Shown here in pieces: positions 3,245 through 58,625 of a DNA stretch of 64,000 nucleotides. Both the position numbers and the translations under genes were made by a program. The notes under the pieces are model-generated. The model searched no databases. It saw only the letters and a list, made by a program, of their open reading frames with translations, and was not told the DNA's origin. The number at the start of each line of letters is the position of its first letter. Positions within the stretch are counted from its first letter, which is position 1. Origin of the DNA: Heterodontus francisci (taxonomy: Eukaryota). The DNA lies in NCBI RefSeq assembly GCF_036365525.1, contig NC_090399.1, positions 15,251,558-15,315,557 of the forward strand. Reading direction: 5' to 3'.

Positions 3245-3480
3245 GGACTGTCTAATAGAAGCTGTCAATTTGTTTGATGTGTTTCTAGATATATGTTCAA
3301 TTATATACTTCCAGGCTTTCTTGGCTAACAAAATAAGTTCATCAAAAAGTTAGTGACAAGTTATTTGAATGGAAATTTGTTCATTTTTTTAAAGGATTCT
3401 AGCTGGAAGATCTGGATACGTACAATGAACTGGAGAGGGATCACCCTGAACAAGTCCACAGCTCGTCAATTGCACACTGA
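3245..3480 (+). pseudogene. Relic of the two ITAM exons of another paralog
   Basis: Nucleotide similarity to 19255-19437 including intron ends; donor GT mutated to TT, indels, in-frame TAG; still reads LEDLDTYNEL. Confidence 0.75.
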
Positions 3481-9769: not shown

Positions 9770-9827
9770 ATGGTTTTAATTCAGCAAATTTCTTTTATAC
9801 TGGTGGTTCTCGTTCAGCTAACCACGG
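9770..9827 (+). CDS. NCR3-like: Gene A exon 1: signal peptide MVLIQQISFILVVLVQLTT(G)
   Basis: Kozak-like gaccATGg, hydrophobic core, phase-1 donor G|GTTAGT matching the phase-1 V exon acceptor. Confidence 0.78.
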
Positions 9828-12800: not shown

Positions 12801-15800
12801 CACAAAGCTATCTTCCACAGCCTCACATTCCTTTCTTGTCTGATCCCTTCTATTTCTGAACTATTCTTTGTTCTCCTCGGCCTCTGTGCTCCTTGTTTCT
12901 CTTCCCTAATGTTTAACCCTGATGCCCACTCCCCTGTCAAACTAGTTTAAACCCTCCTTTCATTGCCTGAGTAATTCTGCTCATGTTGCTTGCTTCGAGA
13001 GGCAGCTGTGTATTAACAGACTGAGTTTTTAGGTTTCCTTTTTTATCTCAGTATTTATATAATGGCAACCACATTATTGCCTTTACGGCCAAAAATGCCG
13101 ATCAGCATGTTTTTTTAAAAAATTCTGTCAGGGGTTCGAGCATTTCTGGCTAGGTGAGCGTTTGTTGTGAATGGGGTGCCAATCAAGCAAGCTGCTTTGT
13201 CCTTTATGGTTTAGACCTTCTTGAGTGTTGGCGCTGCACCCGACCAGGCAATTGAAGAGTATTCCATTAGAATCCTGACTTGTGCCTTGTAGATGATGTA
13301 CAGGCATTGGGGAGTCAGGACGTGAGTTACTCGCTGCAGAATTTCTAGCCTCTGATCTGTTCTCGTAGCCACAGTATTTGGTGTGGCTGGTCCAGTTCAG
13401 TTTCTGGTCAGTGGTAATCCCCAGTGGGGAGTCAGCAATGGTAATGCCATTGAACATCCAGGGAAGATGGTTAGACTCGTTTTTGTTTGAGATAGTCATT
13501 GTCTGGCACTTTGTGTGTCGTGAATGTTACTTGCCACTTATCAGCCCAAGCCTGGATGTTGTCCAGGTCTTGTTGCATCTGGACACAGACTGCTTCAGGA
13601 TCTGAGGAGGTGCTAAACATTATGCAATCATTAGCGAACATCCCCACTTCAAACCTTATGATGGATGGAAGGTCATTGATAAAGCAGCTGAAGATGGTTG
13701 GGCCTGGGACACTACCCTGAGGAACTCCTGAAGTGATGTCCTGGAGCTGAGATGATTGAATTCCAACGACCACAACCATCTTCCTTTGTGCTAGATATCA
13801 CTCCAACCAGTGGAGCGTTTCCCCCCTGATTCTCATTGACTCCAGTTTTGCTACGGTTCCTTGACGCCATACTTAGTAAAATGATGCCTTGATGTCAAGG
13901 AAAAATGAGTGTTATAGAATTCAACATCACAGGTAATCGATCAGCAATTGTATTTTATCCGTTCAGCACTTAGTTCAGTCGATAATACAGTGAAACGTAG
14001 CAACAAAACTAAGTATTAACACCACCCCCCCCCCCCCCCCCACCCCCCGCCCGCAACCCCCCATTCTCTTTTAGACGCTGACTGATTTGTTAGATATTAA
14101 TAGCACTTTCTGGATTTATAGATTGTATCTGACGCTTCCGGTATCCTCTCTTTTGCGTTTTTTAAAAATCTCTCTATCTATGTAATATGAAATGATAGCT
14201 ACCTTTACCAACGAAAATATTCCGTTCGGGAGGAATGACGTTCACTATTCATCACTTTAAAGTTAAAATATTTCTATTCCGCAGGTGAGACGATAAATGT
14301 CACCGTTTTCCAGTTCCCTCCCTTTCTAACTGCAGCTGAGGGGGAGTCGGTGACACTGAACTGTGCTGTGACCTTCAAAGGAAACCTATCCCTGATCGGC
14401 ACAGCTCACTGGACACGGGGTAAACCAGATGGGTACAAACTGGACAAGAGTCCATTTTATGAAGGTCGGCTGGAGGAATCGAACAGTGATTCATTTACCA
14501 ACAACAGAATATTCATCAAAATCTCCGACTTGACTGAAAAAGACGCAGACACCTATTACTGTCGTGTAGACTTAATAGTAGTCGGATTGGGAGATGGAAA
14601 TGGCACCAAACTGGAAGTGAGAAGTAAGTAACAAGTAGAATCAGAGCTTCACAAAAACCTGTTCTAATTTTACACATGTAAGATTGGTGTGATCCCATTT
14701 TCTCCGTTTTAACTACAGTATAATTAGTTTACCACATACAATTGCAATGTTTATAATAATTAACAAACTAGTACAGGGTAGTGTTGCAGGTAACATAAGG
14801 GGTCGCCTATTTAAGACAGAGATGAGGAGAATTTTTTTTTCTCAGAGGGTCGTGAGTCCTTGGAATTTTCTTCCTCAAAAGGCGTTGGAAGCAGAGTATT
14901 TGAATATTTTTAAGGCAGAGGTAGATAGATTCTTGATAAGCAAGGGGGTGGAATATTATCGGGGGCAGTTGGAAATGTGGAGTGATCAGTTCAGCCACTA
15001 ACTTATTGAATGGCGGAGCAGGTTTCAAGAGGCCGAGTGGCCTACTCCTGCTCCTAATTCGTCTGTTCGTATGCTCGTAGGTGAGTGACAGAGGAAGCGA
15101 AACAGATGTTCCAGAACCAGAGAGTAAACTGTTAGTTTAATGCAATTGTTATATCGGGTTTAAATTATTGTAAATAAATGTCGGTACTTAAGTAAAGGGC
15201 AGAGGAATTTTATAGATAACTGGCATGGGCTGCCATTGCGTGATGTGGTTTAACCCAAAGAAAGTCAGTATGAGGGGAGTCTTCATTAAGTAAAATCATG
15301 CCTTTTCCTACATTATAGCTATATTTACAAACGCCTCAACATCGCCACTATAATGGGCATCACATGCTCGTTGACACATAGAAATGCATTTATTTAACAA
15401 GTATATTATGCTAGTCAAGTGCATGGTTTTAATGTTGCGATATTATTATCCTCCTGTCGCATATTTTCCGTCAGGCAAACATTTCTTGAAGCTCATTATT
15501 TCACGCGTTAAAAGTCTTTCCAAATGCGTGTGCGGCATTGAGTAATACTGAGCACGAAAATCCCACGTTCAACTGTTTTAAATGAGCTTATCTGTCAGTT
15601 GAGGCAGTGAAAATGTGGGTGGGGGCGAGTTCATGCATGATTCACAAACCTGGTCATAACCCAGTGTAAAGTGAAGCTGAGGACAGGATGGGCTAAAATG
15701 CTGTTCCCTACGCGAGGGGACAACCGCTCACTTAATGGATTGGTATTAGGAGAAATTTGATTGAAATCTCTAATGTGGTAGCAACAGTCTTAAAATACCT

Positions 15801-18800
15801 GAAACTGCTGCAATGACGCAATTGGGGAAATTATGAAAGGGATGGGAATGACACGAAACTATAAATGAGGTATGAAAAATAATGCTATTCAAAAACAAAC
15901 TACACCAATGTTACAGACATGTCTGTTAGTTACAATGTGATATTTCCTTTGAGCTGATCATTTTAATATTGTAGAGGATTAAAAAGGACAAATAACGCTT
16001 TATGTTTCTGCTCTTTCGAACTGAGATAACTGACAAATGAGCGCGCATAGGTGCGAGAAAGAATGCAAGTTAGAAGCCATTCCAAATATTTTTGCAATAT
16101 TTTGGATGTCACAAAATATTCTAACCATTGTGTTATCTGCACAAATTACAAACTTACAGCACTTTTAGCATATCGTGGATCTAGCACGTTGCTGTTTCTA
16201 CAAAGAGTTACTGAACCTTGTATACAGCCTTCTGTCGGACAGCCATTTTTATTCCTAAACATTAAACTGGTAATCGAAACAAAAACACTGAATTCATTTA
16301 ATCATTTCAGGAAGGATGAAAGAATCAACTTGCCTAAGCCGCAAGACTTCTTCAACAGCACTGTGGAGCGCACTAACCTTGCTGGTTATTATAATCCTGA
16401 TAATACTAGCATGTAAACTGAAATGGAAATGGAAATTCAATGGTATGTATCTTTGTAAATAGAATGTTACTCTTAAAACGTCACTCACTGGTAATGAGTT
16501 TAACTCATTGTCATGTGCAACAACAATACAAAGTTCCCATTATGTCCTTGACAATAATCTTAGTAGTTTGCCCACCACTGATGTTAGTCTATGTATATTT
16601 ATTTTGGATGTCACAAAGCATTATAACCAGAGTAACTGGATCTCCATTGTGTTATCTGTACAAATTACAAACTAACAGCACTTTTAGCATAACGCGGATC
16701 GAGCACGTTGCACATTGCTGTAAATAAATATTTGTTCACTCAAACAATTGAGAAAAAAACCCTTTCTCCAGGTCAGTGGAAGCGCAGGCGGTCATTAACG
16801 CAAATTGCTGGGTTTAAAGTTTATTTTTGAGAAATATTATCTTATATGTTATTGTTAACAGTCATTTAGGCTGTGTTTATCCACTGTAGCATGGGATTTT
16901 GCTCATGCCTTTTCCACTTATCTGGATCCCTTGCTGTTCTCGCCCATGTGGTTCCTAGTTATGATATGTTGTCATCTCTCCATCTTCTTTTCTGTCTATC
17001 CTTTCTTCTTTTTCCTGTTCTTAGCTGCCATTACATTAGTCTATTCGTCCACTTGTTATCATTTCTTCGAGCAACATACCCAGCCCATCGCCATTTGGCT
17101 TCTTTTATCTACTGTATGATGTCCTTAACCCTGGTTTTCTGGCGTGTTTCATTGCACCTGATTTTATTACGAATGCAGATATGTAACACTTGCCGTTCCA
17201 TTGCTCGCCACTGGCTGACAAAAACGGTCCTTTCTAACTGTCTGAGTGATCAAATATTTGCATATAGCTATGTGCTGGATTTACGATTGATAACGGTACG
17301 CTAAATGTGTTAACCCTCCGAACTTGTAGAATGAATAGAGAGAGAGATCGATGGATAGATATATAGATAGACAGCTGTAAGTGCCGGGTGGATGATCCAT
17401 CTCTGCCTCCTCCCTGAAAGGGTTCGTGGACAGTGCTATCAAGTGGCACTTGCTCAGTAATAACCAGCTCCAGTTCAGTTTCTGGCCAATAGAAACTGCC
17501 AGGATGTTGATAGTGGGGGGTTCCGCGATAATGGTAATGCCATTGACTGTTAAGGGGAGATAGTTAGATTCTCTCCTGTTTGATATGGTCATTTCCTGGC
17601 ACTTGTGTGGTACAAATGTTACATGTAATACGACCGCGGTTGGAGCAACACACTGTTAATTCAGTCCCGTCACTCCACAGGTCACAGCATATTTATTTAA
17701 GATATCCAACTCGGAAAAAAACAGCCAAATTAAGCACGCTAGTGTCCCCAGAATGAAGCAGACTAAAGCAGGTATCTTTACTCAACAACAAATTAACTCT
17801 TTATTGAAAACAACTAACTCTTAAACACTTTTAAGATAAACCTATGTCTAAAAATCTTATGATTTCTATTTAAAAATATAACCGCATTCGTTTACATATA
17901 CTCAAAATTAACAGTGGTTACATTTTTTTAAATGTAGTTTTCAAGAATTAGCTGTCTCTCAGGAATAAAACAAATAAACAAGTCTTTGTAGGTTATGTTC
18001 CTGGTAAATGAAGTCATCCAATGTAAAATAGTCAAAGGTCACTTGAAGTCTTCACAGGGGTCCGATGGGGAAAAGGTCCTTCAAAGTTAAGCTTTCAGCA
18101 GTTCTGCTGTTGTAGCATTAATCTGTCCCTTTAGTGATGAACACAGCAAATACCAATGATTTGTTGGAAAAGAAAAGCTTTTCTTATTTTCTAGCTTGCG
18201 GCTTTGTAGAATTTTGAGATAGAAATAACAGAGCTTCTTTCCTTCAGTTCAACTCGCCTCACAGATCTCTCAGCTCAAAATCAGTCTCTGTCACTTAGTT
18301 TAAACAGTCAAAACTGCAATGTTGAATCATGTGACCTCTCTCTCTCTCTCCTGCTGCTGTTGCAGGTGCACTGATCTTTTACAGGCTTAAAGGCTCACAG
18401 AATATTTCTAAGGAGAAAAAAAAGAAGACCATGATACGTGCACCTTATCACGCAAATGCTTCGGCTACAAGAACAGGTCAGAGGCTGGGAATCCTACGGC
18501 GAGTAACTCACCTCCTGATCCTCAATACCTTTCCACCATCTGCAAGGCACAAGTCAGGGGTGTGATGGAATATTCTACACTTGCCTGGATGGGTGCGGCT
18601 CCAACAACACTCAAGAAGCTCGACACCATCCAGGACAAAGCAGCTTGCTTGATTGTTACCCCATTCACAATCTTCAACATTCACTCCCTCCACCACCAAC
18701 GTACAGTGGCAGCAGTGTGTACCATCTACAAGATGCATTGCAGCAACTCACCAAGGCTCCTTCGACAGCACCTTTCAAACCCACGACCTCTGCCACTTAG

Positions 18801-19437
18801 AAGGACAAGGGCAGTAGATGCGTGGGAGTACCACTACCTGCAAGTTTCCCTCCAAGCCACACACCATCCTGACTTGGAATGATATCACCGTTCCTTCACT
18901 GTTGCAGGGTCAAAGTCCTGGAACTCCCCTCCTAACAGTACAGTTGATGTACCTATACCAGAGGGACTGCAGAAGTTCAATAACGCAGCTCACCACCATC
19001 TTCTCAAGGGTAATTCGGGATGGGCAATACATGCTGGCACAGCCAGCAACGCCCACACCACTCGAATGAATCATTTAATAAGTGTATAGATAACTCGACA
19101 GATGGATAGAGAACAGACAGTTAGATCATACGTACATATTTATGAAGTAGATTTAGCTGCAACATTATAAAATTTGCTGGTGTAAGTATATTCTTTATAC
19201 ATTTAATTATTCAAAGTTATTTCGTGTCATTATTTCACTACAGTTGTCTCACAGAATGAAGTTGGCAATCACTCTGATCTGTATTCTACATACATGGTAA
19301 AATACATTTCCAGAATATCCTGAATAAATTAAAACAAAACTTTACTGCCTAAAGAGTTTGAAATGACACAAATCTTCCATTTTTCAAAGGGTTTGGAACT
19401 GGAAGATGTGGACACTTACAGTGAGTTGCACAGGTAA
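9770..19437 (+). CDS. NCR3-like: Gene A (span of 5 exons): NKp30/NCR3-like VJ-type Ig receptor with intrinsic ITAM, 209 aa
   Basis: Exons of 58+339+132+53+48 = 630 nt join in frame through GT-AG introns (phases 1,1,1,0) with no internal stop: MVLIQQISFILVVLVQLTTG-ETINVTVFQFPPFLTAAEGESVTLNC...HWTR...DADTYYCRVDLIVVGLGDGNGTKLEVR-RRMKESTCLSRKTSSTALWSALTLLVIIILIILACKLKWKWKFN-VVSQNEVGNHSDLYSTYM-GLELEDVDTYSELHR*. Family assignment is by recalled similarity to mammalian NKp30 (CRVEVLGLGVGTGNGT), not by a search. Confidence 0.88.
11010..12960 (-). mobile_element. CR1 LINE fragments in gene A intron 1
   Basis: RT C-terminal ORFs 11094-11980 and endonuclease-start remnant 12533-12940. Confidence 0.9.
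13160..13900 (-). mobile_element. CR1-group LINE RT fragment, second family
   Basis: SGVPQGSVPGPTIFSCFINDL, MFANDC, WADKWQVTF. Confidence 0.85.
14285..14623 (+). CDS. NCR3-like: Gene A exon 2: germline-joined VJ-type Ig V domain
   Basis: Acceptor tttctattccgcag|, donor A|GTAAGT; B-strand Cys (VTLNC), C-strand Trp, D-x-x-x-Y-Y-C and J-like GxGT (GNGTKLEV) in one exon. Confidence 0.95.
14790..15078 (+). mobile_element. CR1 3' end fragment
   Basis: FKTEMRRIFFSQRVVSPWNFLP; similar to the reverse complement of 580-870. Confidence 0.85.
16311..16442 (+). CDS. NCR3-like: Gene A exon 3: Cys-containing stalk and uncharged TM segment
   Basis: atcatttcag| acceptor, G|GTATGT donor, phase 1-1; ALWSALTLLVIIILIILAC followed by basic KLKWKWK; starts RMKE like the gene B TM exon. 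Confidence 0.9.
17461..19075 (+). mobile_element. LINE 3' fragment with inverted 5' piece, interrupted by an ~810-bp unclassified (solo-LTR-like) insert at ~17624-18437
   Basis: Minus-strand MTISNRRESN...QKLNWS then plus-strand continuation MEYSTLAWMGAAPTTLKKLDTIQDKAA. Confidence 0.75.
19244..19296 (+). CDS. NCR3-like: Gene A exon 4: cytoplasmic, first half of ITAM (...DLYSTYM)
   Basis: tatttcactacag| acceptor (phase 1), ATG|GTAAAA donor (phase 0); decayed homologue at ~3250-3295. Confidence 0.82.
19390..19437 (+). CDS. NCR3-like: Gene A exon 5: second half of ITAM, GLELEDVDTYSELHR*
   Basis: ccatttttcaaag| acceptor after a 93-nt intron; completes YMGL-x7-YSEL; TAA at 19435-19437. Confidence 0.85.
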   Translation, partial: GLELEDVDTYSELHR

Positions 19438-19949
19438 GATGTGGCACAACTCCACAAGCAAGCAAATATCTACCATAAAAAGCAAGGTGCTTCGCCACAC
19501 CATGCTTGTTTCAACTAATGCTCCGAGGGGGGTGGAGTATGAGCTAAAGTGATGTGTTTTAAATGCAGACAGCCTAAAAGCTGAGAGTAATTTGCTAACT
19601 TATTATTTCCATAATATGTAAGTACGGAATGCAGTTTAATATTCCCTGGTACCCAGTAACAGTATGGACGAGGTAGGAGGGCTGGTGGACACTAATTTTT
19701 AAGCAAAAAAAAATCATCTTTTTTATCACGCACAACTTCAAGTTTAGTAAAATCTCTTCGATCCGATTTCCCAGTTCATCCGTTTCTTGCTGTCTCTTTT
19801 TCAGTGATACTGGTTAAACGGAGCTAAATGTATTGCAGGAACATTAAAATACACGGTCTGAAATCACTAACAATTGTCTGGGCTTCAATTCTCTTTAGTA
19901 AAATTGTTGGAAACTAATCACATTCTCACTTTTCATTTTCCAACAGTAA

Positions 19950-31015: not shown

Positions 31016-32473
31016 GTCGTACATATCTTTACCGTGTGCATACAGAAGATGCTGCTCATCCAGCGAATTGCCTTTGTGCAACTGATTCCCATTGCACTAT
31101 GCACTGGTGAGTGAACTTCTTTTCCTGAGCTATTATTACAGAATGCAGCGAATATCGGCATAAATTCCAATTTGATGTTTTAACAACTTGAGAATCGTTG
31201 AAGTCACCAACGTTAAAGTTAAGATGACTTTTGCCATTTTCTGCAAAACTTCAGATTTAAGCTTAATAGATTTAATATGATGTGCCAACCATGAAAATAT
31301 GTGCTCCCACTGCGGATTTATCATCAATAAATTGACATTCCATAAATCATTCGGCAGTAAGTCCGGTTATTGATTTCTGATTAAACTGTGCCACGTCTAT
31401 GATTTCATTGTGCTTAAGATGCAGGAGATACTATCGTCATTGCTAACATGAATATTTTTAAAGAAACATGCGCAGCAGTATATAGTTAGAAATCCGCAAT
31501 GAATGAATCAAAAAACCATAGAATGGTTACAGCACAAAAGGAAGCCATTCGGCCTGTCGTGTCCATGCCGGCTCGCTGCAAGAGCAATTCACCGAGTCCC
31601 ACTCCCCTGCCTTTTCATTTGTATCATTTGAGTAGCCCCTCCACCCGAGACTGCTGTCGGGTGAAATGGGGACTAAACACAAAATAAATGAGGCAAAAGA
31701 TGACATATGCCGAATATTTAGTTTTTTTTTTCTGAAATCAGCAACTGTAATTAGCTGTAAATTCAACCGGAATCGTTCTAAGCCGATTTCTGGTCCAGCA
31801 AAATACCAACGCAGAAAATATTCAAAACCAATCCTCAGTAGAGAGTTCCAGGTATGATTAATTCTGTTTGGAAATTGATAAGCACGAACAGGGAAGGACG
31901 ATCAAAACCTTTCACTCCTACATCTATTTTAGAGATCTGAGCGGAATATTTTGACCGCCACTTTCGGGGTCTCACACTCACTAGGTAGTGATTATTAAAA
32001 TAGTGCGAATACTGCCCCTGATATTCTGTATACTGACATTAGCGTTAGGAATACCTCGACAGATACAGCCCGGATTTGCCGATTAGCCACCGCTGCTTCA
32101 AGGAATCCGCTTTGGGTAGCCGCATGAAAACTTTTCCTTAGAGGCTTCTGCATTTAGTGCTTAAAGAGACAAAGGCCCACGATTTTAGCATTCAACAAAC
32201 GAATCCTAATAATGAATGTGTTGGGTTCTTTTCTGGATTGTACGTAGAGGTTCAGTTTTGAATAGCTGTCTCCAATCTACTCACGTCTGCTGATGGTTGA
32301 TTGCATCCTTCACTTGTCGCTTCAGGGGGCTGTAGGCTGCAAAAAAATCATTTGCACTCTGGTACTGACCGGGGAAAGCTAACTGCATGTTTTCTGAGAG
32401 CCAGGATATATTGTTCATAATAACACTAAGTAGCTGCGGTGAGGAATGCCGAGAAAATGATTATAAAAATAAG

Positions 32474-32519
32474 ATGTCCACAATATGTATTGTGTTATTA
32501 TATGTATTATTTCACCCAG
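32474..32519 (+). CDS. Gene B candidate signal-peptide exon MSTICIVLLYVLFHP, donor apparently defective
   Basis: Hydrophobic 15-codon leader ending FHP (compare NKp30 leader ending VHPG); junction reads CCA GTCCGC, one G short of a phase-1 donor. Confidence 0.55.
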
Positions 32520-34577
32520 TCCGCGTCTCTGACATGCATATGTCATGCTGGGTGTTTGTCCTGAGACAGAGTCTGTTGACAATGTCAGAGAGATTCACCC
32601 GTGCATTGAAGCCTACGAGGTTAGTTTTGTTTGGTGTTGTGTGTGGGGAGCGGGAGACCTGACATGAATCTGAGCGATATGAGGAACCAGCGCTTTAAGT
32701 GTGTCATTCCTCAGTCCGCTGTTTTAAAGGAGACATCTTATTAACCATTGAACCGCCAGACGCGAATAGCAAAAACATTAATCTATATTTTGTAATAAGC
32801 AGTTCTCAAAGGCTTCCCCACGTCGAATTTCCAGCAATATTGTAAAACTTATGAACTAAGAGACAGGAGGAAATCATTCACAAAATGTCCTACACTGTGA
32901 TGTGTAGTTCAGGAGTTTGAAACTGTAAATGTCACTCCTTGCAATGACCATGTTCTTGTTGGGCTGGCTGGAATCAATGTACGATAGACAGTAACCAGTT
33001 TCCAATTATGTATATCTTGTATTTTGTTATACTTGGAGCTTTAAATGGCCTTGGCTGTGATTAAAACCAGAGCCATTATCATGAACGCTATTTACCATTT
33101 CAAAGTGTTTTGCGGGATTTGCTCTTGCCTCTTGTAAATTAAATAACAAACAAATAAACAAAAAAAGAAAGCTCCTGTTGCCTGGAATAAGGAATGTCTC
33201 CCATTGCATCACAGATGTTGGAGATAATCCTTCACTTCCCAATCACCAAATTATTACTGAAAATCAGAGAGCTGTTTGAGAGGTGTGAGGCGAAAGACTG
33301 CAGTACGGAACATCATGGGACGGCGTTGGGTAAAGAAGATAAATGATAACTAATGATCTAGTGATGCCATCCTTGGAGTATCACAGTCCGTGATACGCTG
33401 GAATATCACCGTTTAATTCCGGGTGAAACAATGAGTAAGAGCGGCTGAAAATCATATCAACTCTCAGTTGATGCGGATAAGAGGAAGGGCTTAAGACGTA
33501 TAACTATCACAGCAATCAAATATGTAGGTAAATTCGACTCAGTTAGCCAATGGGATGTCATTTCAACATTTGATTTAAGCGGTTCTCGTACTTGCAGCTC
33601 TATTGAGTAGATCCGATTATTTCTCTGTTCGAAATAGCACGCAGCGTCGCAGGTGAACCTGTCAGTAATTATTTACTCCGCCAAGGTGCTTATAGATTAG
33701 AGGGTGTTTCGTGATGTTGTTTAAGCGTAATCTGGACTCTGGAGCATAGCTGAGATGCCTAATGCCAAGATGGAGATGCAATTTACATTTCTGTTTCTGT
33801 AGGACATTTGTATTCGTTCTTGGGATGTGAGCGTCTCAGATAGGGCCAGCATTTGTTAGCCATTGAGAAAACGGTGGTGTACTGGGACCAGGCACTTCAA
33901 TTATGTGGATGGAGGAGGTGCAAGCAGGTGCAATAGTAACTTTCAAAAGGAAAACCTATAACTATGTGAACGGGAAGCAGTTGCAGGTCTACGGGTAAAG
34001 AGAAGTGAGTGGGGCTAGTTGGATAACTGTTTCAAAGAGCCAGCACAGGCAAGATGGGCCGAATGGCGTCCTTCTGTGCCCTGTCATTCCATGATTCCAG
34101 TGGTCTGACTAGCCACATCCAGTAAATTGTTGTTAACATCAGAGGGCAATGCATGGCCAATTCCAAAGTAAAATTGGTTGATAAGATTGCTTCGTTTTGG
34201 CAACAAAATATGAGGGATGGTTCCGAGGTTTTTACTTTAACACCTCGCTGTTCGATAGATAATGGTGAAGTCCTTCAGCCAATCAAATTGTGAAAAGTAA
34301 CAGACTAATGATACAAAATGTCTGGATTGCGCCAGCCGTCCTGAACATGACAGACCAGGAAGAGCCAATCTTTAATCAATCATTATCAAACTAGCTTTTA
34401 TATATGTAATATATAACTATTAGACCTGCGTTTATAGATTATAGATACATAATTTTCTACTGTTTATATATAATATGGAGAATGGTGACTAGCAGAATCA
34501 ACTTTCTCCACTCCCCATGTGATAGATATATAATTAGCTTGTCTAAATGATAGATATAGCAAAACTTAACATTGAAG

Positions 34578-34900
34578 TTCATATAAATCCATTTTTCAAT
34601 TCTCTCCCTTTTTAACTGCAGCAGGGAGCCAGTCCGTAATATTGAATTGCTCCGTGCATTTTGAGAGAAATTACTCATTATTCAACATAACGCAATGGGC
34701 ACGATCTCAATCGATTGGCGAAAATATGGACAAAGATCCAATATACATCGGGCTTTTGAAGAAAGCAGACCAGGTGACGTTTGGCAATGAAAGAATTTGC
34801 AATAAATTGTTTGGCTTGACGGAGAGAGACTCAGACACCTATTACTGCCACATAAGAAATAGGCACAGCGTCGGCAAGAGCAACACAGTGGGAATTAAAT
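34578..34900 (+). pseudogene. NCR3-like: Gene B V exon: divergent, damaged paralog of the gene A VJ domain
   Basis: IFQFSPFLTAAGSQSVILNCSVHFERNYSLFNITQWAR...LTERDSDTYYCHIRNRHSVGKSNT aligns with gene A V; core frame open, but indels relative to gene A at both ends; possible phase-1 sites at 34622 (acceptor) and 34900 (T|GTAAGT). Confidence 0.8.
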
Positions 34901-35299
34901 GTAAGTAGTAATTTAAAACAATGATTAAAAAATGCATAATTAAAGTTAACAAGTAATTTTCTCACGAAAATAAAACACACAAAAAAGCTGCAAACACCCA
35001 GGAGGTTTGTTACCCTCTGTAAAGAATGCTGGATAGCATTTTACCTATAGCCGCTGAAAATTGAATGATGATCAAGTCGTTTAACAGCACAGTGCAAAAG
35101 GAAGGGAGTGAAGAAATATCTCAACAGCAGAGGTGTTAATCGTGACAAATATAAGAGGTTGAAACAGCTCTTGATGTTCGCACATGCTCTTATCCCTTCA
35201 CCCCTTCACTTTCTGTTAAACATATCTTTCCTTTTAATTTCACTCCCGTAAGACCGCTGCTTGCCAGGTTTTGACCGTTCCATTTGACGTCGTTCTTTC

Positions 35300-35960
35300 T
35301 GATCCGGATCCCGATCCACTTTAATGAATTCCAAGCTGGACCTGATGTTGATAGTTTCTTTCGCTGCAGTACTATTTTTGAACTGGAGGATCTCTTTTGT
35401 CCATTCTCCCATGTCTCTTTCTATGCCGCTTGGCTTTCTCTCGATCTCTTCATCGATTACTATCACAGAGAAATCGGAGGTTTATATCTCCACAGTCCCC
35501 TTAGGCATTTTCATCCAACCCCTCTCTGAAATGATATCTCTATGTTGTCTCCGTTTTTACCCAGAGGATTAACGCCGACCCTATTTCTTATTGTTCTGCT
35601 ACCATCCCCTGTTCCTGCTTTCACAACATTTCTAGGGCACCCCTTGTCCTAACCTTCCATATCACCAAACTCCCCATTGACAAGATTACTCTTTGACATT
35701 TCTGGCACCTACCACATGAACCCATCACCAAAAACTCCTTCCCTCTCTGAATTTCTGGGAGGTATGTGTGTTCTCAAATAGCTTCGCTCATTGCCGTTCA
35801 GTTGGTACTTTGTCAATGCACCAGTAGATGTAACCCCTGTTTATTAATTTCTCTGGCAACATTGCTCAGAGTCACAAACACCCGTTCTATATTAGACATC
35901 TGTGGAATTGCCTCCTACGATTTACAATACTGTAGAGTAGATATTTCTGTTTGTGAGACA
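35300..35960 (+). mobile_element. Decayed Penelope-like ORF fragment in gene B intron
   Basis: PLVLTFHITKLPIDKITL*HFWHLPHEPITKNSFP resembles the PLE RT-EN linker. Confidence 0.5.
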
Positions 35961-36626
35961 TAGTGCATGCGACTATTTAAGCACATTGGTGTTACCTTTA
36001 ATTTTGGGCGAGTGTAAATCGGCGCGAATTTCGATATCACCCGTTTTAGCATGTCGCTCAAAGTTAAAGTGACTCCTCCTCACTAGGGAAAAATGAAGTG
36101 TGGAAGAGTGCACACAGGCAAGAGACAGAGCGCCTAGTCATGGGTAGAAAATCTGGCGTAAAATCGAGTGGGGCGGCGGAGGTGCCGCACCTCCATGTAG
36201 AATTCCAGCTATCTGACTCATCCCACTTTGAATTCAGCGTCTTTTAAATACGCATTCTTCCACGTTAGCCCAAGTTTCAGGAGCAGCTTCATCCTTCTGA
36301 TGCGACTCTGAAAGGCTATCTTCTGAACATTGGTTTTAGACACTGAGCCACCGTCCCCACCCCCCCCCCCCCCCAACACACACCAGTTTTCTTTATAGGT
36401 GATGATACTGTTGATGCAGTGAAGGCAGGCCAACGTCTGGAAGAAGGAAGGTGAGGGGCAATATTTTGTTGCTCGGGCACAGACCTGGTAGGAGTTTTTT
36501 GTTGTCATTCTTGTTCCACTGAGATGCGAACATTTTTATTTCTTACTCTAGAAACCGCTTCATTTCGGTGAGCTGTTTCACGTTCAATATCAATTAAAAC
36601 CTCTCTCTTCACTCGATTTATTTTAG

Positions 36627-36737
36627 GCCGCATGAAGGAAACAAGATCCGACATAACACCGGTTTTGCTGGGCGCACTGGCATTCATAACCGTGCTAATC
36701 GTGTTTCTGACAGTTCGATTGATGCGTGGGGAAACAA
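36627..36737 (+). CDS. NCR3-like: Gene B TM exon: RMKETRSDITPVLLGALAFITVLIVFLTVRLMRGET, uncharged TM core
   Basis: atttattttag| acceptor, phase 1-1, weak donor A|GTTTGT; homologous to gene A exon 3. Confidence 0.82.
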
Positions 36738-37884
36738 GTTTGTATTTGCTTATACCTAAATAAATAGTGTCCTGTTGTGAACAAGTTACCGTTCGTTGTC
36801 GGTATAGTGTATTTTTAAATTATTTGTTTGTGGGATGTGGGCGTCGCTGGTTAGGCCAGCGTTTATTTTCCATCCTTAATCGCACTTGAACTGAGTGGCT
36901 TGCTAGGCCATTTCAGAGGGCATTTTACGAGTCACTGTGGGTCTGGAGTCACATGTAGGTCAGCCCAGTAAAAGAGAGCAGATTTACTTCCCTAAAAGAC
37001 ATTCGTGAACCAGATGGGTTTTTGCAACAATCGACAATGGTCACCATGAAACTCGCTTTTTTTTTAAATGCCAAAATTGAAAGTCAAATGTTACCATCTG
37101 TTATGGTGGGAGCTGAATCCTCGTCCCGAGAGCAATAGCCTAGTCCATTAATCGCGCGACATGAGCACTGCGCTGCCGCCTCCGCTTGCTGCCAGGGTTG
37201 CATTTGTTTGGTAAAATGTCCAAGTGGCTATTTTCCATACGGGAGTCGTGAGAGGAAGGTTTTCGGGGTGTCTAACTATTCGAGACAGGCATCTACACGG
37301 GTGCAGTTTCTAACACACGGGCTGGGGTTTTTTTTTCCTGTTTCTAGGCGCAGGAGCCGTGAGGTCAATTGTCGCAACCACTCTGGTTCACATTTTGTTA
37401 AAAGTGGGAACGAGAGGGTACTTTAAATAACTCACCACACTCTTCACATAACGACCAGAGTAATTGCTGCTCACGATCACTAAGTGTTTAAAGATAAACT
37501 GTTGTTTAAAGCCTCGTTGAAAATAGATCGACAAGGAATTCTGATTGTTGGAGAATTTTTTACAAAATTGTTCCGACTTTCAAATGGTGATGATGTCCCT
37601 GGCTACGAGTTGTAATTGAGTTACAACAGTTTGTTACTGAATTGTAATAATATGGTGAAGCTGTCATTGATAGGGGAAGAAACAGCTTATTTATCTAGTT
37701 CATCGTTTCTTTTTTTGTGTGTTCGGAAGAATTTAAAAAGAAAGGAAATCACTTCAATTTTGTTACTGTTTTTATTTGGGATCCGAAATAAGTGTTCATG
37801 TTCATATTTGCATTAAAGTCCTATTATATGATGAACTTCATTTTTTAAGCATTATATAATTCTGGCATATTCTGATTACCACAG

Positions 37885-37913
37885 ATTCCAATGATATGCA
37901 AGCAACAAGACAA
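37885..37913 (+). CDS. Gene B cytoplasmic micro-exon NSNDMQATRQ
   Basis: ccacag| acceptor, CAA|GTAAGA donor; phase 1-0 exactly bridges the TM exon and the ITIM exon. Confidence 0.62.
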
Positions 37914-38284
37914 GTAAGAACTATGCGATGCTTTCCATGTCAAATGATAAATGGACGGTTCCAGGGATTTTTAAAAAATCATAATTATCTACAGCCTTCA
38001 TTCAATTTCCAGGTTACATAATTGGCAAAAGTACCAGTGTGGAGACAAGGCTTTTTTTTTAACGCAGCAGGCTGTTGAATGGATTGCACTGTCTGAATGG
38101 GTGCTGGAAGGAAAATTAATAAAATAACTTCCAGAAACAATTGGATAAATGCTTGAAGGAAAAACATTTGCAGGGCTCGAGGGAAAAAAGCAGCGGAATA
38201 GCATTATTCTCTTTGAAAGAACCAGCACAGGCACAATGGGCTGAATGGCTCTCGTGCGCTTTCTATGATTTCAAATAACTTTTT

Positions 38285-39360
38285 TCATTCATTCATGGGA
38301 TGTGAGCGTCGCTGGCAACGCCAGCATTTATTGCCCATTCCTACTTGCCCTTGAGAAGGTGGTGGTGAGCTGCTTTCTTGAATCACTGCAGTCCTTGAGG
38401 TGTAGGTACACCCGCAGTGCTGTTAGGAAGGGAGTTCCAGAATTTTGACCTAGTGACAGTGAAGGAACGGTGATATAGTTCCAAGTCAGGATGGTGTGTG
38501 GCTTGGCGGGGTGACTTGCAGGTGGTGCTGTTCCCATGCATCTGCTGCCTCTGTCCTTCCAGGAGGTATAGGTCACGGGTTCAAGCATTTATCCAATTGT
38601 TTCTGGAAGTTATTATTAATTCTGCTTCCAGCACCATTCAGGCAGCGCAATCCAGACTCCAACAGCCTGCTGCAGATTTGAAACGTGCTCTCGAAGGAGC
38701 CTTGGTGAGTTGCTGCAGTGCAGTTTGTACAGACTGCTCCCGCTGTGCGCCAGTGGTGAAGGGAGTGAATGTTGTAGGTCGTGGATGGGGTGCCAATCAA
38801 GTGGGCTGCTTTATCCTGGATGGTGTCAAGAAATTTGAGCTGAACCCATCCAGGCAAGTGAAGAGTATTCCATCACACGCTTGACTTGTGCCTTGTAGAT
38901 GGTGGAGGGGTATTGGTGAGTCAGGAGTTGAGTTATACACTGCAGAATGTTCAGTCTCTGACCTGTTGTTATAGCCACAGTATGTATGTGGCTGGTCCAA
39001 TTCAGTTTCTGGTCAATGGTAACCCCCAGGATGTTGATATTGGGGGATTCAGTGATAGTAATGCTATTGAACATCAAGGAGAGATGGTTAGATTCTCTCT
39101 TGTTTGAGACTGTCATTACCTGGCACTTATGTGGTGCGAATGTTATTTCCAACTATTCAGCCGAAGCCTGAATTTCGTCCAGATCTTTCTGCATCTGGAC
39201 ACGGCCTGTTTCAATATCTGAGGAGTCGCGAATGATGCTAAACATTGTGCAACCATCAGCGAACATCCCCACTTTAGACCTTATGATGGAGGGAAGATCA
39301 TTGATGAAGCAGCTGTAGATGGTTGGGCCTAGAACACTATCCTGAGGAACTCCTGCAGTA
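38285..39360 (-). mobile_element. CR1-group LINE 3' fragment, second family
   Basis: TFAPHKCQVMTVS, MEYSSLAWMG, LDTIQDKAAHLI. Confidence 0.85.
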
Positions 39361-40404
39361 ATGCAGCTGAATGATAGTCAATTCAAGCTGATGAAATGCG
39401 CATTATGCCACTCCCAGCACCCTCCGACTGCATTACGGCTTGAATTTCAACGAACTCAATCAAACGCGATGCACCTCTATGAGATCAAAGGGACCTTCGG
39501 CGGTAGCGAAAAACAGCACGTTTAAAAGTCAATGGAAAATTAGATTGGGCAAGGGGTAAGACAGGTGGCCGATCTGCTATCGCCCATTTTGCGCTACCGC
39601 CCAAGTCTAATAAACCCCAAAAGTTTCTTGATTGTAATTGTTCGCATCGAAACAGGGTTACTACATCCCAATCCAGTTCCTGGTATTTGTGTGCTTGGGT
39701 CAAAAAAATGGCGCTGAATTTGCATCGTACTCATGAGTTCAATTAGATCGCCACAATAATGGCTCCTGTGGACACTAGAAAAATGTTGCAATTTTAGAAC
39801 AGGAGGGTCTTATTGAATCCCCTGATACGGCCGATTTATAGCGACAAGGACACTTTACTTAATCCTCTGTTATACGCGACTATTGAATAGCCCATAGTCT
39901 CTCAAGGGGGAAATGTTCCTTACATCCGTAACCTTCTTAAACACAAAATGTTTATCGACATTACGCTCCCGATGACTGATAAACTGGATTGTTTTATACG
40001 GAATCGTGTTCTTGTCCCATATAAGCATTTTGATTGGCAGCAAATTTGTGGTATTGGGATTTTGAGAACTTCTTTGATTGAGACCTTGTAGAAGAGCAGC
40101 CTCCCCATCCTCATCGCCCCCTCTCCGCTCCCAATGTTGAAGTACTATTGTAATTGGATGATGCAAAGCGGAGCGCAGAAATCCTGAGGAAATCAGAGAA
40201 GGTTCAGTAACTCAAATAGTTTCACCAATCCAAGGCCCTGTAAAGTATGAGGTACATCAGGAGAAAACGCATGAGTCTTGATTTTAATATAGTGTGAATA
40301 CATGCAGAAAGATCGAAGGCGATTGAGCTCAAATCACAAAAAAGCTGTAATTCAATGATGAGAATTGCTGTTTATTGATCATCTTAATGCTTTAATCCTT
40401 TTAG

Positions 40405-40620
40405 GCGCTTCCTCATTATCGTGTTGCTGAAGAGGAGTCTTTGCATTACGCTCAGATGAATATACAGCAAGCGAGAAGGCAGGACAGAGTCAACAGAAAC
40501 GTAGCTGACATAGAATATGCCTCAATAAACTCACTGAGTTCCTGCATGTCCCACAAGCCTCGGCGACCTGAGCTGACATATGCCAATTCCGGAGACCTCA
40601 GGAGGCAAGATCAATTTTAA
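40405..40620 (+). CDS. NCR3-like: Gene B terminal exon with ITIM-type motifs
   Basis: tttaatccttttag| acceptor; ALPHYRVAEEESLHYAQMNIQQARRQDRVNRNVADIEYASINSLSSCMSHKPRRPELTYANSGDLRRQDQF*. Confidence 0.83.
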   Translation, partial: ALPHYRVAEEESLHYAQMNIQQARRQDRVNRNVADIEYASINSLSSCMSHKPRRPELTYANSGDLRRQDQF

Positions 40621-54249: not shown

Positions 54250-57200
54250 TCAGTGCAATTTTCCAAAGTGTAAGGGCGGAGTTCCAGAGCGGTGAGTATA
54301 TAAAAAAACTTACCTCGGGGATTCTCGGAGCAGACTCGGAGGGCGGAGTTCCGGAGCGGTGAGTTCACAGAGGAAGTTACCTCAGGTGGGAAAAAAACCC
54401 TGAAAAAGTGACGTCACAGGAAAGCGGTGACCTGATTGGCTGGTAGGGAATCTGTACCGAATTTGAAAATAAAACTGATAAAAATTGATTAAAACAATAA
54501 TGAACTAATTAATAAGTAGAGTAACTAAACCAGAGGGAGGAGATTACTGTATTTAGACAGCATTTAATATTTATTGTAGAAATCTAGCACTCGGGACCAC
54601 ATAGTGAAGTGTATCATAATTTAGTAAAGATTTAATAAGTATTTATTTATTTTATATCAATTAACTAATTAGTGCTAGAAATGACAGTTAGAGGGGTGAA
54701 GTGCTTCACCTGTGAGATATGGGAGGTCCGTGACGCTTCCAGCGTTCCGGGCGACTACATCTGCAGGAAGTGTACCCAGTTGCAGCTCCTCACAGACCGC
54801 ATGGATCGGTTGAAGCGGCAACTGGATGCACTAAGGAGAATTCAGGTGGCGGAAAGTGTCATAGACAGGAGTTTTAGAGAAGTGGTTACACCCAAGGTGC
54901 CGGCAGATAGATGGGTGACCGCTAGAAGGGGCAGGCAGTCAGTGCAGGACTCCCTTGTGGCTATCCCCCTCTCTAACAAGTATAACGTTTTGGATACTGT
55001 TGAGGTGAATTGCCTATCAGGGGAAAACAGCAGCAGCCAGAGCAGTGGCACCACGGCTGGCACTGTTGTTCAGCAGGGAGGGACAAAGCGCAGAAGAGCA
55101 ATAGTTATAGGGGACTCTCTAGTCAGGGGCACAGATAGGCTCTTCTGTGGACGTTAAAGAGACTCCAGGAAGGTATGTTGCCTCCCTGGTTCCAGGGTCA
55201 AGGATGTCTCTGAACGGACAGAGGGCATTCTGAAGGAGGAGGGTCAACAGCCAGAGGTTGTGGTACACATCGGTACCAACGACATAGGCAGGAAGAGTGA
55301 TGAGGTCCTGCAGGGGGAGTTTAGGGAGTTAGGTAGCAAGTTAAAAAACAGGACCTCTAGGGTTGTAATCTCTGGATTACTCCCTGTGCCACGTGCCAGT
55401 GAGGCTAGAAATAGGAAGATAGTGCCGCTGAACGCGTGGCTGAGCAGCTGGTGTACAAGAAAGGATTTCAGATATCTGGACCATTGGGCTCTCTTCAGGG
55501 ACCAATGGGACCTGTACAAGAAGGACGGGTTGCATCTAAACTGGAAGGGCATTGATATCCTGGCTGCAAGGTTTGCTAGCGTCACTCGGGAGGGTTTAAA
55601 CTAGTGTGGCAGGTGGGTGGGAACCAGAGCAGTAGGACAGCTAGTGAAGTAAATGAGGAGGACATAGTCAATAAGGCCAGTAGGACTAAGAGGAAGAGCA
55701 GGCAGGGAGATGTTGCTGAGCACAGCGGGGCTGGTGGTCTGAAGTGCATTTGTTTCAATGCGAGAAGTATAACAGGTAAGGCAGATGAACTTAGAGCTTG
55801 GATTAGGACTTGGAAATATGATGTTGTTGCGATTACAGAGACTTGGTTGAGGGAAGGGCAGGATTGGCAGCCAAATGTTCCAGGCTTTAGAAGCTTCAGG
55901 CAGGATAGAGGGGGATGTAAAAGGGGTGGGGGAGTTGCATTACTGGTTAAGGAGAACATCACAGCTGTACTGCGGGAGGACACCTCAGAGAGGTCATGCA
56001 GCGAGGCAATATGGGTGGAGCTCAGGAACAGGAAGGGTGCAGTCACGATGTTGGGGGTTTACTACAGGCCTCCCAACAGCCAGCGGAAGGTAGAGGAGCA
56101 GATATGTAGACAGATTTTGGAAAGATATAAAGGTAATAGGGTTGTAGTGGTGGGTGATTTTAACTTCCCCAATATTGACTGGGACTCACTTAGTGCTAGG
56201 GGCTTGGATGGGGCAGAATTTGTGAGGAGTATCCAGGAGGGCTTCTTGAAACAGTATGTAGATAGTCCAACTAGGGATGGGGCCATTCTGGACCTGGTAT
56301 TGGAGAATGAGCCCGGCCAGGTGGTCGAAGTTTCAGTGGGAGAGCATTTCGGGAGCAGTGACCATAATTCCATAAGTTTTATGGTACTTGTGGATAAGGA
56401 TAAGAGTAATCCTCGGGTGAAGGTGCTAAATTGGGGGAAGGCTAATTATAACAATATTAGGCAGGAACTGAAGAATTTAGATTGGGGGCGGCTGTTTGAG
56501 GGTAAATCAACATCTGACATGTGGGAGTCTTTCAAATGTCAGCTGATTAGAATCCAGGACCAGCATGTTCCTGTGAGGAAGAAAGACAAGTTTGGCAAGT
56601 TTCGGGAAGCTTGGATAACACGGGATATTGTGAGCCCAGTCAAAAAGAAATAGGAAGCATTTGTAAGGGCTGGAAGGCTAGGAACAGATGAAGCACTTGA
56701 GGAATATAAAGACAGTAGGAAGGAACTTAAGCAAGGAGTTAGGAGGGCTAAAAGAGGTCATGAAAAGTCATTGGCAAACAGGATTAGGGAAAATCCCAAG
56801 GTTTTTTATACATAAATAAAGAGCAAGAGGGTAACCAGGGAAAGAGTTGGCCCACTCAAGGACAGAGATGGGAATCTATGCGTGGAGCCAGAGGAAATGG
56901 TGAGGTGCTAAATGAGTACTTTGCATCAGTATTCACCAAGGAGAAGGACTTGGTGGATGATGAGCCTAGGGAAGGGAGTGCAGATAGTCTCAGTCATCTC
57001 ATTATCAAAAAGGAGGAGGTGTTGGCTGTCTTGCAAAGCATTAAGGTGGATAAGTCCCCAGGGCCTGATGGGATCTACCCTAGAATACTGAGGGAGGCAA
57101 GGGAAGAAATTGCTGGGGCCTTGACAGAAATCGTTGCATCCTCATTGGCTACAGGTGAGGTCCCAGAGGACTGGAGAATAGCCAATGTTGTTCCTTTGTA

Positions 57201-58625
57201 TAAGAAGGGTGGCAAGGATAGTCCAGGAAATTATAGGCTAGTGAGCCTTACATCAGTGGTAGGCAAACTATTAGAGAGGATTCTTCGGGACACGATTTAC
57301 TCCCATTTGGAAACAAACAAACTTATAAACGAGAGACAGCATGGTTTTGTGAAGGGGAGGTCGTGTCTTACTAATTTGATTGAGTTTTTTGAGGAAGTGA
57401 CGAAGATGATTGATGAGGGAAGTGCGGTGGATGTTGTCTATGTGGACTTTAGCAAAGCCTTTGACAAGGTTCCGCATGGCAGACTGGTGCAAAAGGCGAA
57501 GTCACACGGGATCAGAGGTGAGCCGGCAAGATGGATACAGAACTGGCTCAGTCACAGAAGACAGAGGGTAACAGTGGATGGGTGTTTTTCTGAATGGAGG
57601 GGTGTAACTAGTGGTGTTCCGCAAGGATCAGTGCTGGGACCTTTGCTGTTTGTAGTATATATAAATGACTTGGAGGAAAATGTAGCTGGTCTGATTAGTA
57701 AGTTTGCGGATGACACAAAGGTTGGTGGAGTTGCGGATAATGATGAGGATTGTCAGAGGATACAGCAGGATATAGATCGGTTGGAGACTTGGGCGGAGAA
57801 ATGTCAGATGGAGTTTAATCCGGACAAATGTGAGGTAATGCATTTTGGAAGGTCTAATGCAGGTGGGAGGTATACAGTAAATGGCAGAATCCTTAGGAAT
57901 ATTGACAGGCAGAGAGATCTGGGCGTACAGGTCCACAGGTCACTGAAAGTGGCAACGCAGGTGGATAAGGTAGTCAAGAAGGCATACGGCATGCTTGCCT
58001 TCATCGGTCAGGGCATAGAGTATAAAAATTGGCAAGTCATGTTGCAGCTGTACAGAACCTTAGTTAGGCCACACTTAGAATATTGCGTGCAATTCTGGTC
58101 TCCACACTACCAGAAGGACGTGGCGGCTTTGGAGAGGGTACAGAGGAGCTTTACCAGGATGTTGCCTGGTCTGGAGGGCATTAGCTATGAGGAGAGGTTG
58201 GAAAAACTCGGATTGTTTTCACTGGAACGACGGAGGTGGAGGGGCGACATGATGGAGGTTTACAAAGTTATGAGCGGCATGGACAGAGTGGATAGTCAGA
58301 AGCTTTATCCCAGGGTGGAAGAGTCAGTTACAAGGGGACATAGGTTTAAGGTGCGAGGGGCAAAGTTTAGAGGGGATGTGCGAGGCAATATTTTTGCACA
58401 GAGGGTGGTGAGTGCCTGGAACTTGCTGCCAGGGGAGGTGGTGGAAGCAGATACGATAGCGACGTTTAAGAGACATCTTGACAAATATATGAATAGGAAG
58501 GGAATAGAGGGATATGGGCTCCGGAAGTGCAGAAGGTGTTAGTTTAGGCAGGCATCAAGATCGGTGCAGGCTTGGAGGGCCGAATGGTCTGTTCCAGTGC
58601 TGTACTGTTCTTTGTTCTTTGTTCT
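54250..58625 (+). mobile_element. Full-length, relatively young CR1 LINE: ORF1 ~54672-55604, ORF2 ~55604-58542
   Basis: ORF1 Zn-finger, leucine zipper and SGNH esterase with one stop (55155); ORF2 APE+RT broken by stops and a frameshift at ~56650-56890; tail (tgttctt)n. Confidence 0.96.

Follow-up and report, generated by a model that had tools for sequence, protein, structure and literature searches.

The 64,000-nt window analyzed here, from the horn shark Heterodontus francisci, contains a gene predicted to encode a receptor of the NKp30/NCR3 family with an uncharged transmembrane (TM) segment and a two-exon ITAM in its cytoplasmic tail. We consider it likely, at a probability of roughly 0.7, that such a receptor is encoded here and is the activating member of a cluster in which it stands beside head-to-head paralogs with predicted inhibitory, ITIM-type tails. 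NKp30 is an adaptor-dependent activating receptor. If a shark paralog that carries an ITAM of its own does stand beside ITIM-type twins, the NKp30 family would once have kept activation and inhibition in balance with no need of adaptors, as CEACAM pairs do. Such a paired arrangement usually indicates pathogen pressure on the inhibitory member, and the gene would provide a testable case for the spread of two-exon ITAM modules among receptors. The exon anatomy at the DNA level, the V-domain family, the arrangement of the genes, and the pattern of identity across exons were observed directly; the signaling steps and the history of the tail are proposed from them.

Table 1. Features of the predicted receptor gene and related remnants (window positions unless a contig is named; C29 is the contig that carries the window)
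Feature	Position	Strand	Description and basis
Leader exon	9770..9827	+	ATG, 19 codons plus 1 nt, phase 1; read from sequence
Homologous leader remnants	C29:15192227 and 15223546		Similarity to window leader
VJ-type Ig V exon, NCR3/NKp30-like	14285..14623	+	Pfam V-set, E 9.7e-10
Stalk/TM exon	16311..16442	+	Hydropathy scan; hydrophobic core without charged residue
Tentative first cytoplasmic exon	18366..18476	+	111 nt, phase 1-1; frame survives its skipping
ITAM exon 1	19244..19296	+	53 nt, phase 1-0, last residues Tyr-Met; read from sequence
Intron inside first YxxL	19297..19389	+	93 nt, GT-AG, phase 0, 3' end ...ttttcaaag; retention would give a stop
ITAM exon 2	19390..19437	+	Starts GGT TTG; GL-x7-YSEL, TAA at 19435-19437; sequence and split-ITAM detector
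Probable 3' UTR	19438..19870	+	ATTAAA near 19843
Decayed ITAM exon pair	3258..3430	+	Donor lost, in-frame stop

Joining the six exons in Table 1 gives one open frame of 246 predicted amino acids, which runs from a leader through a V domain and an uncharged TM segment into the tail. The intron phases are 1, 1, 1, 1, and then 0, and the V and TM exons further upstream fix the reading frame independently. An earlier note had placed a 93-nt intron exactly between TAC ATG and GGT TTG; it is present in the DNA, the frame agrees, and by sequence reading it divides the first YxxL as YM/GL (a slash within such motifs marks the splice junction). The exon in front of it has an acceptor ending in ...ctacag and runs to TAC ATG/gtaaaa. 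As a minor uncertainty, a donor at AG/GTAAGA (19433/4) could be used in place of the TAA stop. A second AG at 19253-19254 is a possible alternative acceptor that would give a 42-nt, phase 0-0 form of ITAM exon 1, a hint that the exon perhaps arrived as a 0-0 unit and then gained a new acceptor.

The predicted spliced motif, YMGL-x7-YSEL, fits the YxxL/I-x6-8-YxxL/I spacing of the classical two-exon ITAM, and the phase-0 intron separates Yx from xL in the first module, as in the classical form. The consensus D/E/N at Y-3 (PMC4536121) is absent: the window gene has a tyrosine at this position and an aspartate at Y-5, and the codon at Y-3 is TAT, versus GAT in a multi-VJ receptor on contig C13 that is discussed below. 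Split ITAMs were sought with a detector of the pattern 'Yx/GT..60-200 nt..AG/x[LI]x6-8Yxx[LI]', with 200 Markov shuffles as background. The background amounted to 0.115 matches per shuffled 64 kb (22 of 200 shuffles with a match), and the expectation for the 4 kb of sense strand behind the TM exon was ~0.004. Over the 1.26 Mb of fetched DNA, 3 matches were observed and ~2 were expected; therefore, the place and the frame of the motif carry the case, and the pattern alone does not. A stricter version requiring D/E at Y-1 to Y-4 did not recover the window ITAM because its Y-3 residue is tyrosine rather than D/E/N, with the aspartate at Y-5. With place and frame taken together, a split ITAM ending a predicted NCR3/NKp30-like receptor is confirmed at the DNA level.

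By its V domain the gene falls among shark proteins already named NCR3. The domain is 83% identical to a horn shark NCR3 record and 67% identical to a nurse shark NCR3 record, and its best single-domain PDB match is human NCR3 (E 9e-11). A horn shark record maps exactly onto a gene neighboring the window gene. Like mammalian NKp30, the gene places its TM exon after a single nonrearranging VJ-type V exon. PMC6514059 describes mammalian NKp30 as having a TM arginine and the partners CD3-zeta/FcR-gamma, without a signaling tail, whereas the window gene combines an uncharged TM with its own predicted ITAM. The arginine used for adaptor pairing in the mammalian form is absent from the window gene and from the TM core of ITIM-type shark paralogs; the acidic TM residue typical of dedicated adaptors is likewise absent from the uncharged core of the window gene. 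The closest known subtype is the ITIM-type shark NCR3 (nurse shark QTT61901, horn shark XP_067865596-600, and records from Mustelus, Heptranchias, and bamboo shark), with V domains 64-89% identical to that of the window gene and a related TM exon (52% amino acid identity over 25 residues against the TM of an ITIM-type paralog). The subtype differs in its leader and tail exons, which are unlike those of the window gene, the tails ending in an ITIM-like EYATI. Searches of the ESM Atlas returned nothing specific. Among the V-domain matches listed, 25 of 30 are on C29, where NCR3-like V exons form two clusters ~16 Mb apart, at 14.8-15.4 Mb and 31.0-32.0 Mb.

Within 120 kb upstream, the opposite strand carries three close paralogs, A, B, and C, the last of them directly head-to-head with the window gene. 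An ITIM-like EY(A/T)TI closes the tails of A and B; in C this terminal tyrosine is gone, and an upstream one is kept. All four records of the subtype from other sharks with full tails (nurse shark, whitespotted bamboo shark, Mustelus, and Heptranchias) end in EYATI. We call these tails ITIM-like by the usual consensus. The label also rests on definitions in PMC2832619. Compared with A, B, and C, the window gene is 89-91% identical in the DNA of the V exon and only 59-64% identical in both the leader and the TM exon. The V domains are 83-89% identical in amino acids and are joined to opposite tails, ITAM versus ITIM-like. On its upstream side, the V-exon homology continues in patches for ~400 nt of intron; on the other side, it ends at the V donor. 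At four-fold degenerate V sites, the window gene differs from A, B, and C at 4/40, 3/44, and 6/48 positions (7-12.5%), and A, B, and C diverge from one another in the same range. Duplicated noncoding blocks of the cluster are 71-87% identical. In a 13-row V tree, the window V joins that of its direct head-to-head neighbor C (93/96), and the node uniting all four paralogs is weak (81/70). High V identity beside low leader and TM identity, with the homogenization confined to the V exon of oppositely oriented genes, would be the signature of a paired receptor homogenized by gene conversion; a recent duplication of the V exon fits these data equally well. Gene conversion would keep the window V exon similar to those of its inhibitory neighbors. 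The leader and TM exons do not seem to derive from the plus-strand gene farther downstream, an idea that we rejected because the identities are just 62% and 51%. Paralog C occupies C29:15240446-15251255 on the minus strand, adjoining the window upstream, and contains a partial V-exon duplicate at 15248129-15248296.

Remnants of ITAM-type genes lie between the ITIM genes. We found two decayed exon pairs and two leader-bearing deletion remnants, which are 66-89% identical to the window gene, depending on the stretch. The decayed pair within the window is 77% identical over 1.5 kb to the second decayed copy, at C29:15172152, and the 3' UTR sequence of the window gene is 75% conserved as far as 19870 in a remnant at C29:15223822. 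Because the remnants recur between ITIM genes, the ITAM-type gene is older than these duplications; the window copy is the only intact one seen in the cluster.

The decay of these sister copies bears on whether the window gene is itself a recently silenced pseudogene, its anatomy intact and no protein made. We consider this unlikely. The frame is open and GT-AG sites are kept across all exons, and both ITAM tyrosines and leucines are retained, whereas the sister copies, decayed or deleted, lost theirs. A repeat has inserted over one donor, that of the tentative 111-nt exon, which sits within a repeat starting near 18454; this insertion favors silencing. No RNA contigs fell on positions 19150-19900 in three runs of one sample, which is no evidence either way. 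These runs yielded repeat contigs and a single paralog A contig (30 of 30 listed differences match A); that A is represented and the window gene is not would also suit a silenced gene, yet contigs from a single sample do not suffice to demonstrate absence. No protein record for the window gene was present among the database matches listed.

The arrangement of an intrinsic ITAM beside ITIM partners recalls the CEACAM receptors. In CEACAMs, too, receptor-intrinsic ITAMs are divided by this phase-0 split, which is termed typical or characteristic of them (PMC2110893, PMC2832619, PMC5112662), and PMC5112662 and PMC2832619 describe CEACAM pairs with opposite orientation and conversion restricted to the V exon. 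In the pairs so described (human CEACAM1/3, dog CEACAM1/28, and Xenopus Ceacam), as around the window gene, the receptor with the split ITAM has an oppositely oriented ITIM partner, with high identity only in the V exon. The window V domain differs in being of the NCR3/VJ type rather than a CEACAM N domain, and on this comparison the resemblance is one of design, by analogy, and not of family membership. The earlier note had read the split as a mark of dedicated signaling adaptors. Since CEACAM receptor ITAMs share it, the split does not single out adaptors, and the nearest relative that we found for the window ITAM is also a receptor ITAM.

The same note had held that adaptor ITAMs carry an intron at this very site, and they do. 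A phase-0 intron after Yx is published for all classical adaptor ITAMs (PMC4536121), and the last two introns of dogfish CD79A are reported as phase 0 in PMC4034164. All four adaptor ITAMs that we located in the genome are split after Yx in phase 0: the three of CD247 as YQ/PL, YS/KL, and YQ/GL and that of CD79A as YE/GL, with introns of 13585, 3770, 9148, and 5424 nt, respectively. Compared with this classical two-exon ITAM (CD3, CD79A/B, CD247, FcR-gamma, DAP12), the window ITAM has the same YxxL-x7-YxxL form and the same phase-0 intron after Yx (PMC4536121). It differs in lying on a receptor with a ligand-binding-type V domain and a TM without an acidic residue, in the phase of exon 1 (1-0, versus 0-0 in adaptors and in the C13 receptor), in an intron of 93 nt versus kilobases, and in lacking D/E/N at Y-3. 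CD79A occurs twice in the assembly (C39 and C2295) with an identical TM exon; its last exon was taken from the duplicate contig C2295, as C39 has a gap there. That exon (C2295:255879) also encodes a third tyrosine module, YQDV, seven residues past the ITAM. Pfam and pattern searches of the genome gave no usable gene for CD79B, FCER1G, DAP12/DAP10, or CD3; the three adaptors that the earlier note had named (FCER1G, CD79B, and TYROBP, the DAP12 gene) are among these. One match from these adaptor searches, on C36, we take by eye to be a cytokine-receptor Ig domain; matches on C12 and C35 had no convincing upstream exon within 1.5 kb, and further ones looked like repeats or carried a stop.

With three introns in a tail of ~239 nt, the chance of an exact match of the intron site is p ~0.013-0.038, which favors common descent over convergence without proving it. 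The motif could instead have arisen convergently across a preexisting phase-0 intron of an NCR3 tail, a reading that we regard as very improbable. In an ITIM-type paralog, too, the penultimate exon is of phase 1-0 and the last intron of phase 0, ITAM residues are constrained by SH2 binding, and an unsplit ITAM present in the genome indicates that the motif needs no intron. Against convergence, besides the site match, stand the absence of sequence similarity between the ITIM-type tail exons and the window tail and the similarity of the window ITAM to the C13 ITAM at nonconsensus positions and at the junction. A literature search for a proto-splice-site explanation of the intron position found nothing. 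The unsplit motif, at C3:122403303-122403353, is a complete ITAM (YEGL-x7-YSVL) that exceeds the Pfam PF02189 cutoff. It lies whole within what looks like a single terminal exon, whose phase-0 acceptor precedes the first tyrosine by one codon, and it would break the two-exon rule. Its gene was not identified in the 90 kb upstream. An unsplit ITAM-like motif, YVTL-x7-YETI, also occurs in the second NCR3-like cluster (C29:31136454, minus strand) and may be due to chance.

The closest match to the window ITAM lies in a nonrearranging multi-VJ IgSF receptor on C13, with a bamboo shark counterpart (XP_043552676). Both the C13 receptor and the window gene have an uncharged TM and the form STYM/xL-x7-YSEL, with the junction TACATG/gtaa and an intron of ~100 nt; in the C13 receptor these read YM/AL-x7-YSEL, TACATG/gtaaga, and 102 nt. 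The two ITAMs agree at 10/21 amino acids, 6/17 nonconsensus positions (shuffle p 0.0009), and 35/63 nt. The joined exons scored above 500 of 500 shuffles; the intron core was not significant, as 49 of 500 shuffles reached its score. When the genome was scanned with a pattern combining both loci, no third locus matched. The C13 receptor differs in its contig, in V domains that resemble those of antigen receptors (the bamboo shark record has several of them in tandem), and in an ITAM exon 1 of 36 nt in phase 0-0. A bamboo shark multi-V receptor record, P0148, has the same tail as the C13 receptor and is one of two ITAM-like tails among 155 proteins. The multi-VJ family, with its antigen-receptor-like V domains, is found at C13:120.24-120.44 Mb and also on C439, C650, and C1995, with a split intrinsic ITAM in at least one member.

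Over the same 21 aligned residues, the window ITAM shares 6, 3, and 7 identities with the first, second, and third ITAMs of CD247 and 7 with CD79A; the comparison was ungapped, and the second CD247 value (3/21) is lowered by its 8-residue spacer. The best adaptor similarity is 7/21 amino acids, 4/17 nonconsensus positions (p 0.023), and 28/63 nt. The window tail is no closer to an adaptor than adaptors are to one another (3-7/21 versus 4-7/21, the latter from 2 adaptor genes). These values bear on whether the two exons were captured straight from a dedicated adaptor gene (of the CD79, CD247, FcR-gamma, DAP12, or CD3 type) by exon shuffling. The intron site and phase agree with adaptors, the window ITAM has GL-x5-[DS]TY in common with CD79A and the third CD247 ITAM (7/21, shuffle p 0.02-0.03), and the window tail has no similarity to ITIM-type NCR3 tails. 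Weighing against capture, a similarity no greater than that between adaptors is joined by the closer C13 receptor, with which an intron of ~100 nt is shared, as opposed to adaptor introns of 3770-13585 nt, and by the lack of any DNA match of the exon pair elsewhere in the genome. Direct capture from an adaptor is improbable on this balance. The earlier note had inferred homology with the adaptor ITAM module. Common descent from an ancient two-exon module is indeed likely, given the site match; an adaptor source is not indicated by the 3-7/21 identities. Among the genes compared (CD247, CD79A, and the C13 receptor), the receptor-type ITAM of C13 is the best lead to kinship that the sequences provide.

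Taken as an activating receptor, the window gene product would recognize much the same ligand as its inhibitory neighbors, as the V identity suggests. By established ITAM biology, ligand binding would lead to phosphorylation of both ITAM tyrosines by Src-family kinases, and the phosphorylated tail would recruit Syk/ZAP-70 directly, without a CD3-zeta/FcR-gamma adaptor. The ITAM exon pair would descend from an ancient two-exon module common to adaptors and receptors, most likely by way of a receptor-type lineage, with the C13 multi-VJ receptor as the closest match found. A broader proposal is tentative, and we hold it to be possible rather than probable: that sharks run NKp30 as self-signaling ITAM/ITIM pairs and that the two ITAM exons form a mobile cassette of receptors, which moved between nonrearranging VJ receptors that are unrelated and lie on different chromosomes (NCR3 and the C13 multi-VJ family). 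An ITAM intrinsic to a VJ-domain receptor may represent the state that preceded adaptor-dependent signaling by NKp30 and antigen receptors.

A regular-expression search of 155 proteins for ITAM-type NCR3 in other species found none, neither of the two ITAM-like tails belonging to an NCR3, and inspection by eye of 12 of 15 further proteins also found none; these included few shark records, two of them V-only. Within 10-60 kb of ~16 other NCR3-like V exons on C29, no convincing split ITAM was seen, and a weak match at C29:31015004 was treated as chance. A literature search, which did not extend to the main shark NCR3 paper and its supplements, found no report of an ITAM-bearing shark NCR3. The intron position is an architecture already in print, and the new element, its novelty uncertain, is an NCR3 paralog that carries an ITAM within a paired cluster.

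A second NCR3-like gene occupies positions 31049-40600 of the window on the plus strand, with a leader at 31049, a V exon at ~34576-34905, a TM exon at 36627, and an ITIM-type last exon near 40405. It groups with Heptranchias P0170 (99/98) and is probably a pseudogene, as the end of its V exon and its TM donor look damaged. From 41700 to 64000, the window consists mainly of what by eye appear to be LINE and retroelement remnants, including a reverse-transcriptase-like ORF of 584 codons at 56788-58542, likewise labeled by eye.
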